A stretch of 64,000 bases of DNA from Nannocystis bainbridge (GTDB taxonomy: Bacteria > Myxococcota_A > Polyangia > Nannocystales > Nannocystaceae), in the NCBI RefSeq assembly GCF_028368995.1, contig NZ_JAQNDL010000005.1:384001-448000 (forward strand). Direction: 5' to 3'. Below, in pieces: positions 51,222 through 62,392 of this stretch. Position numbers and translations under genes: made by a program. The notes under the pieces were generated by a model. The model was not told the DNA's origin. It made no database searches and was given only the letters and a program-made list of their open reading frames with translations. Numbering within the stretch: the first letter of the stretch is position 1; each line of letters starts with the position of its first letter.

Positions 51222-52235
<1,014 letters not shown>

Positions 52236-52463
52236 GGTTCCGACCAGGTGTTACGTGCGAGTTGAAAGTTCGGGAAGACTAGGAGAGACGCGATAGGAGA
52301 CAAGGGGTAGAGACGGATGAGCAACGTCACTGTCGCGCCGGGAGGCTCCGCAGATTCACGGCGGGGAATGCCTCGCAGGCCCGCAGAACGACCTCTGCGT
52401 CGAAGCAAACTGCGGACGTGTACCCACGCCCGCGGAACTTCTGGCAAAGAGCCGCAATAGGAT

Positions 52464-52597
<134 letters not shown>

Positions 52598-53149
52598 GCA
52601 GATGAAGCGTTTGGTCTCCGGGAGGCCGAGCAAGATGCAACCGGGAGGCCGAACGCGACTTTTACTGAAGTCATCTGGACGTTCTGGCACTGCCGCCGCC
52701 GAATCCGCGCAGCATGACAAAGGTTCAGAGACCCCTGTCTGTCACCACGACGGCGCTATCAGGAGTTTGTCCTCGTCGGCGTTGGGCGCTCGTCGGTACG
52801 GTGGGGGGCAGACGATTGGATGCGAATCAGCGCTGAGCACGACATGGTCATCTCCGCAGCGCGACCGATCCGTCATCGAAATCGGCGTCCCCGTTCGCCC
52901 GTCGACCAGGCACCCGCCCCTGGCAACCAGTCTTCGTAAGAAGAGGCCCCCTCCGAGCGGTTCGCGCAACGTCCCACGACCCGGGACCGACGCCGTCCCT
53001 GGATCTCCGGAAGATCCCCGTCTGTCCGCCGGTCGGATGGTCCGAGGGGAGGCCGGCGATCTGGAAGCCGCGATGTGCGTTGCCCGCGTTGTCCAGCCCG
53101 CCGACGGGGCGAAGATTGTCGGTAGGTGGCGCCGAGGGCGAGCGCCTCG

Positions 53150-55056: not shown

Positions 55057-55425
55057 GCCATTCGAGGATGGTCGCAGACCGTTGCATCGGCAAGGACCGC
55101 CGGGCCTCTGGCGCCCGACCTGACAATCGACATTCAGCCGCGTTCGGTGCCAATCACGCGTCCAAGGTATTTCCCCGTCCGAGATCCGACAGCGTGACGC
55201 ATGTCCTTTCATCATGAATCCTCCCGAGGAAATCCGGGGCGAGTCCGCCGGGCTCGCGGCGGTTCGAGCCGACGACCCTCGATCGGCCCCTGGATGCGCG
55301 CATCACGGCCGCGCATCACGGCCGCCCGCGCGCTCTCCCCCACGCGCGGACGGCCGTGAGCCAGGCGCCTCGGGCTTGCGGGGGGCCTGCCCGCTGGGCT
55401 AGGGTGCGCGCCGCCTCGGCGGAGC

Positions 55426-56837
<1,412 letters not shown>

Positions 56838-56841
<4 letters not shown>

Positions 56842-57080
56842 CGACGACCCCCAAGCCCAAAGATCCGCTGCACGGCATCACCCTCGAGGCCATGGTCAAC
56901 GACCTGGTGGCCTTCTTCGGCTGGGAAGAGCTCGGCCAGCAAATCTCGATCCGCTGCTTCACCAGCGAGCCGAGCGTGCCGTCGAGCCTCAAGTTCCTGC
57001 GCAAGACCCCCTGGGCCCGCGAGAAGGTCGAGAGCCTTTACCTCTTCGTCCAGCGCGAGCGCCGGCGGCAGGGGCTGTAG
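56838..57080 (+). CDS. VF530/DUF2132 family small protein
   Basis: DPLHGITLE..GWEELG..IRCF..PSVPSSLKFLRKTPWAREKVE; GTGA overlap with dbpA. Confidence 0.9.
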
Positions 57081-57761: not shown

Positions 57762-58430
57762 GGTCCGCGACTATGCGCAGCTTCGCCGAGGGTGCAACCA
57801 CGCGAAGCATGCGTCCGGGCGAGCCGCTGGACGCTGCGATGCACAGGCGTCGGGAGCGCCGCGAAGCGCGGGACCTCTGCTCGTTGTCCCGTCGAGGGTG
57901 TCGAGCACGAGACGCGTCGAATGCATCGAGTGCATCGAGACGGCTCGTTGAGCTCGGCGCCGGGGCCGATGCCCGAGCACGGGACGCGCGAGGGATCGGG
58001 CGCCCAGCAGCACGGCTTCCGCGAGGCCAGCGCAGAGCGCAGCAACTTCGTGGCGGGCTCGAGGTCCCGCGCACTCGGCCCCTGGTGCGCGGTCGTACAG
58101 GGCCCAGCGCAGGCGGACCCGTCGCGTCGCTCGGTCCAGCCCCTCGGCCGCGGCAGAGCGCGAGCGCGAGCGGACGGGCGGTGGACGTGCTCGCCAGTCA
58201 CCGCGATCCACAGGACCAGCGATTTGCGGCGCGGCCGGGGCCCGTGCGTCGAGCTCGTGCGGGCGAACGACGGTCGTCCCTCGTTCGCTCTCCGACGACT
58301 GCTCCCATCGCGCGAATACACCGTTTTTATCGACAATGAGCATTAACGCGATATCCCGGGGCGCTGGATCGTGGACACGCCATTGTCAGGTCGCCGGGTC
58401 CTGGTGTACCGTCCCCGGCGAAAAGAGGTG

Positions 58431-61331
58431 ATGATGCCCGCGCCCGGTGAATTCAGCCCTCCTGCGCCTCCCTGCGACTGTGACAACGATCCGATCGGCG
58501 GCCTCGAGCGAATGTTCGTGCGATTCGCCCAAAATCGGGCCCTCGCCACCGGCCGCGATCCCGCGACGCGCCCGGTCTTCCTGCGGCTGCACGGCGTCGC
58601 GTTCGGGCGCTTCGAGATCAGCCCGGACTTGCCGGAGGAGCTACGGGTCGGCCTATTCGTGCCGGGCGCGTCCCACCGCGCGTGGGTCCGCTTCTCGAGC
58701 GACCTCCAGCCGGGGCGGCCGGATCTCGGCGGCACTCTGGGCATCGGTATCAAGCTGTTCGATGTCGAAGGTCCGAAGCTGCTCGAGCCCGACACCGAGG
58801 CGCGGACGCACGACTTCATCCTGCAGAATCACCCGGTCTTCTTCGTCGATGACGCCGCCAAGATGTGCGCGTTCACCTGCGCCTCGCTGAACGGTCAGCT
58901 CGACGCGTGGCTGGCCGACAACCCGGTGACCGCCCAGATCCTGAAGGACATGGAGAAGAAGGTCGATTCGGCGCTGGACTCGCCGTATTGGAGCGTCCTG
59001 CCGTACAGCTTCGGCCAGCGGCACGTCAAGTACAAGCTGGTGCCCGAGGCTGCCGGCGAGGGTCCGCCGGTCGACGTCGCGGATCCGACCTACCTGCGCG
59101 CCGACCTCCACCGGCGTATGGCCGCCGGCGAGGCCCGCTTCGGGTTCTACGTGCAATTGAAGCAGGCGGACATGCCGCTCGATCGCGCGACCGTGGAATG
59201 GTCGGAGCGCGAGAGCCCGCCGGTGCGCGTCGGCACCCTGGTGCTCCCGCAGCAGGACCTCGACGCCCGCGGACAATCGGCGTACGGCGAGAACCTGGCC
59301 TACAACCCATGGCACGCCCTGCCCGCCCACGCGCCGGCCGGCAGCATCTCCGACGCGCGCCGGGTCGTCTACCGCGCCTCTGCCGACAATCGCCGCGACG
59401 TCAATGGCCAGCCGCGCGGCGAGCCGACCGCGCCGCGGCCCGACACCTGGGACGGCGGTCGTCCGTACCCCACCGCCGTCGATCGCCGGATCGTGCGCGC
59501 GGCCATCCACCCTGCGATCGGCATCGCCCGCGTCGGCAACAGCGAGCATGAATTCCTCTACGGCCCCGAGGTCGTCGACGCACCGCCCGCGCCCGTGGGG
59601 GCCTGGCGCGACTCGACCGGGGCGTTCAAGCGGCAGGCCGCGCGCTTCCGGATCTACGGCTACAACGCCGCCGGCGACGTCGTCGGCGAGATCACCGCCA
59701 ACACCGCCGACATCACGTGGCGGGTCCACGTCGCCAATCACAAGGCCGCCTGGTACCAGTGGCAGATGGCGCTCGACATCCCCGAGGCGGAGGCCCTGGC
59801 GCTGCCGCTGCGGAACGCCGGCGTGAAGCCGGCCGATCGCGCGGAGCTCGTGATCGACGGCGGTCCGGTCGAGGTCCGCGGCGTGTCCACCGTCGGCTCG
59901 ACGATCGACGGCGAATTCCAGGGCACCCCGGTTCGCCTCGGCCAGCTCCGCACCGACGAGGTCGGCCGCCTGGTGTTCCTCGGGGGCCATGGCACTTCCG
60001 CCTCGCCGACCAACCAACCGATCTACAATGACAAGATCCCGACGACCTTCATCAACGCCGACGGTTGGTATGACGACACCTCCGACGGCCCCGTCACCGC
60101 GACCGTCCGCATCGAGGGCGCCGAGATCCCCGTCGAGGGCGCCTGGGTCGTCACCGCGCCGCCGGACTACGGTCCCGGGGTCCTCGGCGTCCGCACGCTG
60201 CACGATCTGCTCGTCGATATGTACGTGCAAGCGGGCTGGCAGGCGGCGCCGCGCGACATCACCTTCAAGCACGACGTGTGGCCGCTGCTGCGCCGCCTGA
60301 CCGGCTTACAGTGGAACAATCGCGGCTTCGCGGTCGCGTACGGGGCCGGCTCGCGGCTCGACTTCGACGATCGGGCCTTCGCCGCCGAGCTCGCGTGGAG
60401 GCCGGCGCCAGACGGCTACGATCGCAACCAGGAGCTCCGGCGGCAGATCGCCAATTGCTTCCGCCCGTCGAGCCCGACGGACGGCAATCAGCTGCCCTGG
60501 CCGTGGCTCTACGGCGACGCGATGGAGTCGGTGGCGATCGACAACCCGCGGCAGAACGCCACGATCACGCGGACGCAGGAGCAGGTCCTGGCGAAATGGG
60601 TCGCGGGGGAGTTCGTCGATGATTTCGCGGCCGCGCTGCCGACGTACGCCGCGATCGAGCAGGTGCCGCTGGCCGAACAGCCGGCGATGCTCGACCGTGC
60701 GTCGCTCGAGCACGCGCTCGCCGACGCCTTCCACCCCGGCTGCGAGGTGACCTGGCCGGTCCGCCACCTGACGATGTTCGCCCGGCCGTTCCGGATCCGT
60801 CAGCGCCCGGCGGGCACCCCGGCGCCGGATTACGGCCCGAAGCTGACGCAGCCGGTGGCGCTCGGCCCGGACGGCCCGCTGTACGAGCAAGGTCCGGGCG
60901 ACCTCACGCGCTGGATGGGGCTGCCATGGCAAGCCGACACTGCGTTCTGCCGCGCCGGCTACGACGAGCACTACGACCCCTTCATCCCCAGCTTCTGGCC
61001 GGCGCGGGTGCCCAACCAGGTGCTCACGCTCGAGCAATACCGCGTGCTCATGGACAGCTCGCAACCACTCGAGACCCGGCGCGACGCCTTCGCCGCGCGC
61101 ACCGACTGGAACGCGCGCCTCAGCGGCGACGCGCCGGCGCAGATGAAACAGATGGTCCATGAATTCCAGGAGATGGGGCTGCTCGAGGTGCAGCCGGGTC
61201 CGAGCGACATCCCGGGCGTGCCGGCTCAGCTCCGCGTCGCCACGGGCGGCCGCCCCGCCCCGCTGAAGGGCGTGGCCGAGAAGCTCCAGCCGCACGAATG
61301 GCCGGTGCCCGTCCACAAGCCGGCGCGGTGA
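58431..61331 (+). CDS. Catalase-like heme domain fused to LodA/GoxA-family CTQ-dependent amino acid oxidase
   Basis: N-terminus: LHGVAFGRF, WVRFSS, DFILQNHPVFF, YNPWHAL, RRVVYRAS. C-terminus: IHPAIGIARVGNS, KRQAARFRIY, WYDDTSDGPV, FHPGCE, PGDLTRWMGLPWQAD, FWPARVP. Confidence 0.93.
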   Translation: MMPAPGEFSPPAPPCDCDNDPIGGLERMFVRFAQNRALATGRDPATRPVFLRLHGVAFGRFEISPDLPEELRVGLFVPGASHRAWVRFSSDLQPGRPDLGGTLGIGIKLFDVEGPKLLEPDTEARTHDFILQNHPVFFVDDAAKMCAFTCASLNGQLDAWLADNPVTAQILKDMEKKVDSALDSPYWSVLPYSFGQRHVKYKLVPEAAGEGPPVDVADPTYLRADLHRRMAAGEARFGFYVQLKQADMPLDRATVEWSERESPPVRVGTLVLPQQDLDARGQSAYGENLAYNPWHALPAHAPAGSISDARRVVYRASADNRRDVNGQPRGEPTAPRPDTWDGGRPYPTAVDRRIVRAAIHPAIGIARVGNSEHEFLYGPEVVDAPPAPVGAWRDSTGAFKRQAARFRIYGYNAAGDVVGEITANTADITWRVHVANHKAAWYQWQMALDIPEAEALALPLRNAGVKPADRAELVIDGGPVEVRGVSTVGSTIDGEFQGTPVRLGQLRTDEVGRLVFLGGHGTSASPTNQPIYNDKIPTTFINADGWYDDTSDGPVTATVRIEGAEIPVEGAWVVTAPPDYGPGVLGVRTLHDLLVDMYVQAGWQAAPRDITFKHDVWPLLRRLTGLQWNNRGFAVAYGAGSRLDFDDRAFAAELAWRPAPDGYDRNQELRRQIANCFRPSSPTDGNQLPWPWLYGDAMESVAIDNPRQNATITRTQEQVLAKWVAGEFVDDFAAALPTYAAIEQVPLAEQPAMLDRASLEHALADAFHPGCEVTWPVRHLTMFARPFRIRQRPAGTPAPDYGPKLTQPVALGPDGPLYEQGPGDLTRWMGLPWQADTAFCRAGYDEHYDPFIPSFWPARVPNQVLTLEQYRVLMDSSQPLETRRDAFAARTDWNARLSGDAPAQMKQMVHEFQEMGLLEVQPGPSDIPGVPAQLRVATGGRPAPLKGVAEKLQPHEWPVPVHKPAR

Positions 61332-62392
61332 TGAGCGAAGTCGCCGTCATCGGCGCGGGGCCGGCCGGCGCGCTCGCGGCAGGGCTGCTCGCGCGCGCCG
61401 GGCTCGCCGTGACGCTGATCGATCCGCGGCCCGAGGGCTTCCGGATCGGTGAAGGGCTCCCCCCGGCCGCCCGGCCCCTGCTGCAGGCGCTCGGGCTCCT
61501 GCCGCTGGGCGGCACCCTGCCCGGCCACGGGACCCTCTCCGCGTGGGGTAGCGATGACCTCGGCGTGTACGATCATATCGGCGGGCCGTACGGGCCCGGG
61601 TGGATCCTCGACCGCGCACGATTCGACGACGGCCTGCGCCGCTGGGCCTGCGAGGGCGGCGCGGTGCTGCGAATCGCCCGCCTCGTCGGCGCCGCCCCGC
61701 GCGGCGACGAGGCCCTCGAATTGCGCCTCGACGACGGCACCCTCCTGGTGCCCGCATTCGCGATCGACGCCTCGGGTCGGCCGGCCGTGCTCGCCCATCG
61801 GCTCGGCGCGACGCGGACCTGCATCGATGCGCTCGTGGCGACCTACATCCGCTGCCGCCCCGGCGTCCCCGGCGACCGCGACACCCGCGTGCTCGTCGAG
61901 GCCGCGGCGTACGGCTGGTGGTACACGGTGCGGGTGCCCTCGGGCGAGCGGGTCGTCGCCCTGCTCCGCGATCACGCGCCGGGCAGCAGCTCGGCGCGCG
62001 CCGAGTTCGAGTCGCAACTGAGGAGCACGCGCTTCGTCGCCGCCACTCTGGCGGCGCACGCCTACCAGCCGCTCGAGGCCCCTCGCGGCGCGGACGCGCG
62101 GACCGGCCGGCTATCTCATGTCTTTGGGGACAGGTGGCTCGCGGTCGGTGACGCGGCCTTCTCGGTCGATCCGCTGTCGTCGCAGGGCCTCGTCGATGCC
62201 CTGCTCACCGCCGATGCCGCCGCGAAGGCCGTCGTCGCGGCCCTCGACGGCGACCGCGGCAGGCTGCCGGCGTATGGCGAGCACGCCTGCCGGCTCTACG
62301 AGCGCTACCTCGAGCACCGCTCGGCCACTTACGCCCGCGAGCGTCGGTGGCCCGACGCACCCTTCTGGCAGCGCCGTCACGGACCGCCTTGA
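61331..62392 (+). CDS. LodB/GoxB-family flavoprotein (CTQ cofactor maturation)
   Basis: IGAGPAG; IGEGLPP; LDRARFD; IDASGR; GWWY; VGDAAFSVDPLSSQG; ERRWPDAPFWQRR; translationally coupled to the lodA-like gene. Confidence 0.92.
   Translation: MSEVAVIGAGPAGALAAGLLARAGLAVTLIDPRPEGFRIGEGLPPAARPLLQALGLLPLGGTLPGHGTLSAWGSDDLGVYDHIGGPYGPGWILDRARFDDGLRRWACEGGAVLRIARLVGAAPRGDEALELRLDDGTLLVPAFAIDASGRPAVLAHRLGATRTCIDALVATYIRCRPGVPGDRDTRVLVEAAAYGWWYTVRVPSGERVVALLRDHAPGSSSARAEFESQLRSTRFVAATLAAHAYQPLEAPRGADARTGRLSHVFGDRWLAVGDAAFSVDPLSSQGLVDALLTADAAAKAVVAALDGDRGRLPAYGEHACRLYERYLEHRSATYARERRWPDAPFWQRRHGPP

Follow-up and report, generated by a model that had tools for sequence, protein, structure and literature searches.

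A 64,000-nt stretch of the Nannocystis bainbridge genome (contig NZ_JAQNDL010000005.1, positions 384,001 to 448,000 of the forward strand; hereafter, the window) contains a gene that joins a catalase-like haem domain to an oxidase of the LodA/GoxA family, whose cofactor is cysteine tryptophylquinone (CTQ). Our alignments showed that the distal, catalytic His of catalases is replaced by Phe in this domain and that the replacement is general among the fused genes. Haem domains of this Phe type track LodA-like genes, either as fusions or as neighbours. The fused gene (58431-61331, + strand; 966 aa from the ATG at 58431) is followed by a lodB-like gene, and the two constitute a self-contained two-gene module. 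The module is real and well conserved; what we propose for its function is a testable hypothesis.

The catalase-like domain lacks the distal histidine

By profile and model, the N-terminal ~340 residues adopt the core fold of catalases in its mini-catalase version, which does not include the C-terminal part of catalases. Counting residues from the GTG at 58371 (986-aa form), as we do throughout, this y4iL/MAP-2744c-like core of the Phe type spans residues ~40-345 (58488-59405, + strand). It scored below the gathering threshold of the Pfam Catalase family (PF00199; 16.5 bits vs 25), and a single-sequence search of the PDB returned weak matches to 3e4w (E 1.3e-4) and to catalases. A profile of 110 domain sequences (alignment A2) matched 3e4w at 2.9e-24, about 90 catalase sequences to 1e-14 and coral allene oxide synthase (AOS) at E 1.5e-9. 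The AlphaFold2 (AF2) model of the domain had a predicted local distance difference test score (pLDDT) of 92.6 and a predicted template modelling score (pTM) of 0.90, and the best Foldseek matches to this model were catalases (E ~1e-15) and 3e4w, with a template modelling score of 0.71 on the target. Alignment with the genome's own catalase using hhalign gave a probability of 97.7%. The profile, the AF2 model and Foldseek thus agree with the initial annotation, made from the letters of the window alone, in which an N-terminal catalase-superfamily domain was described as fused to LodA.

Three independent alignments placed Phe70 (58578-58580, + strand) at the position of the distal His. In the profile alignments it faces the His of PDB catalases (RVVHARG, RNPHAHG) and of 3e4w (RALHAKG), and in the hhalign comparison it faces the His of RRMHAKGSG in the genome's own canonical catalase. 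Phe was present in all 30 full-length homologues of a second alignment (A1) and at the equivalent position in each of the 79 fused genes that could be evaluated, 75 of which were recognized by the regular expression R-P-[VA]-F and 4 more by tblastn; the 80th fused locus (L033) ends before the motif and is not counted in the 79. The Phe that the initial annotation had read at this position is therefore correct and general. Of the 150 best representatives, 111 were aligned together with the window domain; the other 39, fragments that do not span the region from the motif to the proximal Tyr, were left out. Among these 112 rows, the Phe70 column holds His in 72 and Phe in 40, which we refer to as His-type and Phe-type, respectively.

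A later His, His74 (58590-58592, + strand), was considered as a displaced distal His and rejected. It is the second His, specific to this family, of the motif R-x-x-[H/F]-x-K-x-H-G and is His in 105 of the 112 rows, of both types, and in catalases and 3e4w the same column is Ala/Ser or a gap. His74 is not a shifted distal His, because the His-type relatives carry both histidines, with all 72 of them keeping the true distal one, and it is Phe70 that holds the distal column. The both-His form of the motif, R-x-x-H-x-K-x-H-G, which was defined from the 72 His-type rows and is not a curated definition, does not describe the window domain, where the first His is Phe and the second is retained.

The residues expected to hold the haem are kept, as the initial annotation had stated for the distal Asn and the proximal RxxxY. 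Arg330 and Tyr334 (59358-59372, + strand), the Arg partner and the proximal Tyr ligand, are each conserved in 111 of the 112 rows; the AF2 model places both in its proximal helix, and they face the R...Y pair of the genome's own catalase, and Arg67, Arg107 and Arg341 occur in every row (112/112). The Gln152-Asn153 pair (58824-58829, + strand) faces the N-N pair of catalases; Asn153, the distal Asn, is found in 39 of the 40 Phe-type rows. This conservation bears on the view that the domain is a catalytically dead scaffold that serves only for folding, oligomerization or anchoring, with or without haem. The loss of the catalytic His and the sub-threshold Pfam Catalase score are compatible with such a scaffold, as is the fact that catalase cores oligomerize. 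However, the residues that ligate the haem do not vary across a very wide range of taxa (Myxococcota, Proteobacteria, Actinomycetota, Acidobacteriota, Planctomycetota and Chloroflexota), and the pocket columns have gained polar residues that are themselves invariant, so we give the scaffold little credence.

Several pocket columns differ between the two types. Asp111 (58701-58703, + strand) is an acidic residue specific to the Phe type (38 of 40 rows, in RFS-S-D), and the His-type rows have Gly/Ala/Ser there (RFS-N-G). Both the PDB profile alignments and the alignment with the genome's own catalase set Asp111 against the Val of catalase RFSTV, which we take to line the distal channel. Gln152 occurs in 38 of 40 Phe-type rows and is Ile/Ala/Val in His-type rows. 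Position 121, which corresponds to the channel Asp of catalases, is Asp in 60 of 72 His-type rows and changes to Ser/Thr/Gly in the Phe type, and further switches from the His type to the Phe type are Arg to Val/Leu at 123, Ile152 to Gln and Arg160 to Asp. Because new invariant residues arose alongside the change of His to Phe, these columns suggest that the pocket was remodelled towards a changed function rather than decayed.

With the distal His replaced in every evaluable fused gene, it is very unlikely, judging from the alignments, that the haem domain is a canonical catalase, in line with the doubt already voiced in the initial annotation. It might nevertheless protect the enzyme by dismutating H2O2 at its source, with Asp111 or His74 acting instead of the distal His. 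That the domain keeps its distal Asn, its proximal Tyr and Arg and the arginines holding the haem, that a pocket column has gained an acidic residue and that the fused partner comes from an H2O2-producing family would all fit such a self-protecting catalase. On the other hand, distal-His variants of catalases are not known to retain activity, and even the His-containing MAP-2744c reportedly has negligible catalase activity. Moreover, two canonical catalases are already encoded elsewhere in this genome, and general peroxide defence is therefore independent of the fused domain. Dismutation by the fused domain is, on balance, decidedly improbable.

The LodA/GoxA part and its cofactor site

The C-terminal two thirds of the protein belong to the LodA/GoxA family of quinoproteins. 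LodA_N (PF17990; residues 380-594, 59508-60152, + strand) was matched with an E value of 1.2e-77 (261.2 bits vs a gathering threshold of 26.3) and LodA_C (PF18417; residues 724-876, 60540-60998, + strand), which holds the cofactor site, with 4.4e-36 (124.3 bits vs 25). Since both domains exceed the Pfam gathering thresholds, the full LodA domain recognized in the initial annotation stands. The position of the CTQ Cys does not: it had been assigned to FHPGCE, whose Cys791 (60741-60743, + strand) aligns with Val586 of GoxA (FHPGVE) and is ruled out. The cofactor Cys is instead Cys860, which lies with the active-site Asp856 in D-T-A-F-C (60936-60950, + strand), both residues being invariant. Residues 378-861 match residues 4-517 of PDB 3weu, and Cys860 (QADTAFCRAGY) aligns with Cys516 of LodA, the CTQ cysteine according to a passage of Campillo-Brocal et al. 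2015 (BMC Genomics, PMC4417212). In Pseudoalteromonas luteoviolacea GoxA, Cys860 corresponds to Cys682 and Asp856, four residues earlier, to Asp678, a conserved Asp near the cofactor (PMC7876137). The probable CTQ tryptophan is Trp876 (FWPARVP; 60996-60998, + strand), which is invariant and aligns with Trp697 of GoxA; the alignment to LodA ends at the Cys, so a comparison of Trp876 with LodA Trp581 falls outside it, and Trp913 is a second invariant Trp.

The NCBIfam equivalogs were not reached for either GoxA (388.6 vs a cut-off of 750) or LodA (174.5 vs 600). Going by these profile scores, the fused protein falls outside both LodA proper, a lysine-epsilon oxidase, and GoxA proper, a glycine oxidase, and its substrate probably differs from theirs. 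To our knowledge, LodA and GoxA are the only characterized tryptophylquinone oxidases. GoxA (P. luteoviolacea, 6byw) and LodA (Marinomonas mediterranea, 3weu/2ymw) share with the window protein the LodA_N/LodA_C domains, the Asp-x3-Cys motif, a downstream flavoprotein gene and, in the comparison with GoxA, the aligned Trp; unlike the window protein, they have no haem domain.

Fusions of this kind have been catalogued before. Table 3 of Campillo-Brocal et al. (PMC4417212) lists 21 LodA-like proteins of 963-1072 aa with pfam00199/CD08152, which form group III, and according to the accompanying passages no member of group III had been characterized. The window protein resembles these fusions in architecture, size and its lodB-like partner, the likeness being one of domain architecture and length. 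A group III-type fusion was thus on record in 2015; new here are the fixed Phe, the pocket changes, the tracking of LodA-like genes and the split operons described below. The passages of that paper on the fusions mention none of these: neither the change of His to Phe nor coupled pocket changes, a restriction of the Phe type to LodA-like partners or split operons.

Distribution and association with LodA-like genes

A survey of related genomes, in which 80 of 564 relatives with the LodA motif were taken as 80 species genomes, indicated that the fused form is widespread, occurring in at least 80 species of Myxococcota, Gamma-, Beta- and Alphaproteobacteria, Streptomyces/Kitasatospora, Acidobacteriota, Planctomycetota, Gemmatimonadota and Chloroflexota. 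Spread over so many phyla, it is a common enzyme type. All homologues among the 120 matches listed are 854-1052 aa long and cover 86-98% of the query. Among the 80 genomes, a Nannocystis sp. locus shares 85% identity. Nannocystis sp. RBIL2, the closest of the named genomes, carries two copies of the fused gene on two contigs (L100 and L102), and the genome of the window has a single LodA_N match. In a metagenome-assembled genome of Ectothiorhodospiraceae, the frame changes inside the haem domain of the fused gene (L036:1178-1413), which could reflect either misassembly or a disrupted gene. A lodB homologue accompanies the fused gene at 75 of the 80 related loci and lies downstream in all but one of them. 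No other neighbour is conserved across the 80 loci; the next-best open reading frame (ORF) is common to 7 of 80.

The haem domain was also traced independently of its fusion. Among the 150 best representatives, 22 carry a LodA domain; 15 of these include the motif region and are all Phe-type, with none of the His type, and the other 7 are fragments without the motif. We further chose 160 control loci by haem-domain patterns alone, of which 86 are Phe-type and 74 His-type. A LodA-like domain was found at 78 of the 86 Phe-type loci, and neither lodA nor lodB was found within 7 kb at any of the 74 His-type loci. Six of the eight Phe-type loci without a LodA-like domain end at a contig edge, one (L084) has lodB and one (L086) has nothing in 6.2 kb. 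A further apparent exception to the partnership, L094, proved to be an artefact of the regular expression. In an unrooted FastTree phylogeny, the 72 His-type rows make up one side of a branch with 99% SH-like support. The Phe-type haem domain therefore tracks LodA-like genes, whether fused or neighbouring. Long His-type forms have fusion partners of their own, namely RoxA-like cytochrome c and, in P0174, P0201, P0198 and P0182, DyP-type peroxidase, patatin or an LsmAD/ankyrin/TPR protein.

In at least five loci (L082, L083, L085, L160 and L161), the haem domain, the lodA-like protein and LodB are encoded by separate genes of a split operon, and in two others (L148 and L164) the lodA-like gene is on the opposite strand. 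Some of the short Phe-type proteins are complete and, as judged by eye, carry Sec or lipoprotein signal peptides. In L082, L083, L085 and L081, the leader of the lodA-like protein shows a twin-arginine (Tat) motif with a lipobox and the haem protein a Sec or lipoprotein signal (by eye); no signal peptide was seen by eye in the fused form of the window. These leader sequences imply that the same module works in different cellular locations in its split and fused forms.

The exported forms raise the possibility that the haem domain is an electron-transfer partner, in which the haem takes electrons from the reduced CTQ, as in a quinohaemoprotein amine dehydrogenase such as QHNDH, and is re-oxidized by an external acceptor; the enzyme would then be a dehydrogenase and not an oxidase. 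Both partners of the split operons appear to be exported, and other tryptophylquinone dehydrogenases function outside the cytoplasm. Against this, the Fe(III)/Fe(II) potential of a Tyr-Arg-ligated catalase haem is very low, so that such a haem is difficult to reduce and would accept electrons from CTQ poorly, no signal peptide is seen by eye in the fused form of the window, and no conserved acceptor gene is nearby, as only lodA and lodB recur in the 80 loci. QHNDH itself resembles the present system in combining CTQ and haem, and its maturase QhpG is related to the lodB-like product (167 bits); it differs in that its haems are c-type, belong to a subunit of their own and function in electron transfer, and in having no catalase fold. 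The precedent of QHNDH (PMC7876137), the Tat export of GoxA documented in a passage of PMC3948610, and the statement in passages of PMC4417212 that oxidase activity is not known for group III speak for electron transfer, which we nonetheless consider unlikely.

The lodB-like gene and the N-terminal CxC motif

The lodB/goxB-like gene, as described in the initial annotation, is coupled to the fused gene. It encodes a flavin adenine dinucleotide-dependent maturase and extends on the + strand from either 61298 (ATG) or 61331 to 62392. The ATG at 61331 is more likely to be the start than that at 61298; it overlaps the stop codon of the lodA-like gene as TGATG. The product scored 236 bits with NCBIfam GoxB, 167 with QhpG and 160 with LodB, all under the equivalog cut-offs. 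We regard this flavoprotein as the co-translated, usual maturase of the LodA/GoxA family.

The fused forms, and only these, carry a further motif ahead of the catalase core, P-P-C-x-C-D-x-D-P (Cys35 and Cys37; 58467-58493, + strand). It is present in all 24 rows of alignment A1 that reach this far (6 of the 30 rows are too short), and the haem proteins of the split operons read FDP at this site, without the CxC. The motif could be a metal site.

Such a site might be involved in an in-cis maturation, in which the haem domain performs, or helps with, one of the oxidations of CTQ biogenesis, such as the first hydroxylation of the Trp or the final oxidation, in the manner of MauG and beside LodB. 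MauG-type haem enzymes make tryptophylquinones by long-range oxidation, the invariant C-x-C of the fused forms could bind a metal, and the partnership with LodA-like proteins is strict; in addition, PMC7876137 regards the first hydroxylation in LodA as autocatalytic and dependent on copper. However, a flavoprotein alone matures LodA and GoxA (PMC7876137), and the flavoprotein gene is kept at 75 of the 80 loci. A 1:1 covalent fusion would also be wasteful for a maturase that acts only once, and in the split operons a Sec-exported haem protein and a Tat-exported LodA-like protein would meet only after export, by which time the Tat substrate should have folded and matured. A role in maturation is accordingly not one that we expect, although its probability is small rather than negligible.

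Proposed role of the haem domain

The pocket changes and the genomic partnership speak for a genuine function that needs the haem and is tied to the oxidase. We tentatively prefer, at somewhat less than an even chance, the reading that the domain binds haem and deals, by chemistry other than that of a catalase, with the peroxide of its oxidase partner. The domain would bind haem b and would not be a catalase. The peroxide made at the CTQ site, either H2O2 or a peroxy adduct of the aldehyde or imine product, would be taken by the haem domain and consumed at the haem in a reaction like that of a peroxidase or peroxygenase, in which a residue other than His would act as the acid-base group; Asp111 is the best candidate for it. 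A use of the haem as an in-cis, MauG-like oxidant for cofactor formation is less likely.

The known activities of the catalase fold, those of catalase, AOS and the MAP-2744c peroxidase, all concern peroxides. MAP-2744c (33 kDa; Mycobacterium avium ssp. paratuberculosis, 3e4w/3e4y) is the best solved relative by profile and by fold, and like the window domain it is a mini-catalase core without the catalase C-terminal domain. It differs in keeping the distal His (RALHAKG), in reading RFSNG where the window domain reads RFSSD, and in standing alone. Reportedly, it is an organic-hydroperoxide peroxidase that has negligible catalase activity although it contains the His. The coral AOS-lipoxygenase (1u5u, 3dy5) resembles the window protein in that an N-terminal catalase-related haem domain is placed on a peroxide-making C-terminal enzyme; in the coral protein, however, the partner is a lipoxygenase, the peroxide is a fatty-acid hydroperoxide and the AOS domain keeps its distal His. 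The N-terminal domain of that fusion consumes the hydroperoxide produced by the lipoxygenase, as a passage of PMC5617202 describes. Peroxidases without a distal His exist as well, as exemplified by DyP in a passage of PMC9050505. The use of peroxide proposed here would parallel both the coral fusion and the His-less DyP.

A number of points weigh against this proposal. We infer haem binding by the domain from sequence, and the placement of Asp111, Gln152 and His74 around the iron is predicted from alignment columns. Gln152 is not exclusive to the Phe type, as three His-type loci read Q-N. The full-length AF2 model (pLDDT 75.6, pTM 0.60), in which residues 65-68, 788-797 and 853-880 are of low confidence, offers no confident interdomain geometry, so it lends no support to channelling. 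The counts from the 160 control loci are not phylogenetically independent; the His-type set is rich in Pseudomonas, and many of the Phe-type loci repeat genomes of the 80-genome set. [quoted passage not shown] The initial annotation had asked whether the fusion was already characterized: it was listed in 2015 (PMC4417212), and our literature search, whose coverage excluded most subscription journals, found no biochemical characterization of a catalase-LodA fusion.

A stronger form of the peroxide-handling proposal, which we consider possible but rather doubtful, would make the Phe-type mini-catalase an obligate second catalytic centre. The H2O2 of the CTQ site would never leave the enzyme; a Tyr-ligated haem that lacks the His and is assisted by an Asp would spend it on oxidizing, in a second reaction, the product or a co-substrate, and an entire branch of LodA-like enzymes would represent a new class of quinohaemoproteins. 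If this were true, the physiological reaction would not be an H2O2-releasing amino-acid oxidation at all. If the peroxide is used in situ by the haem, these enzymes would differ from what their annotation implies, namely antimicrobial oxidases that release H2O2. The exchange of His for Phe together with the gain of an Asp, with the haem ligands retained, amounts to a natural experiment in retuning the catalase fold, and the strict association of the domain with a partner that generates peroxide, whether in one protein or in two, provides a clear hypothesis that is cheap to take to the bench.

Start of the fused gene and neighbouring genes

The fused gene is a single ORF ending at 61331 on the + strand, for which ATG 58434 and GTG 58371 (986 aa) are alternative starts to ATG 58431. 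The sequence GAGGTG stands immediately 5' of the ATGATG at 58431/58434. The database gene call (P0003, 937 aa) begins at Met50 and loses the conserved N-terminal motif; this start is probably mis-called, and an early start is supported because the motif precedes it.

A gene for a RoxA-like di-haem cytochrome c with two CxxCH motifs (PF21419; 62418-63998, - strand, its N-terminus lying beyond the window) is convergent to the lodB-like gene. It was considered as a third component of the module because RoxA-like domains form fusions with His-type relatives elsewhere (P0267 and P0192), and was rejected: a homologue was found in 0 of the 80 related loci, the Nannocystis locus with 85% identity among them, and the gene is probably unrelated to the fused gene. 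Upstream, a 574-aa ORF (55356-57080, + strand) with a C-terminal VF530 DNA-binding domain (PF09905) is not conserved beside the module in related loci. The G+C content is 0.70-0.75 over the fused-gene region vs a dip to 0.58 at 52000-53000.

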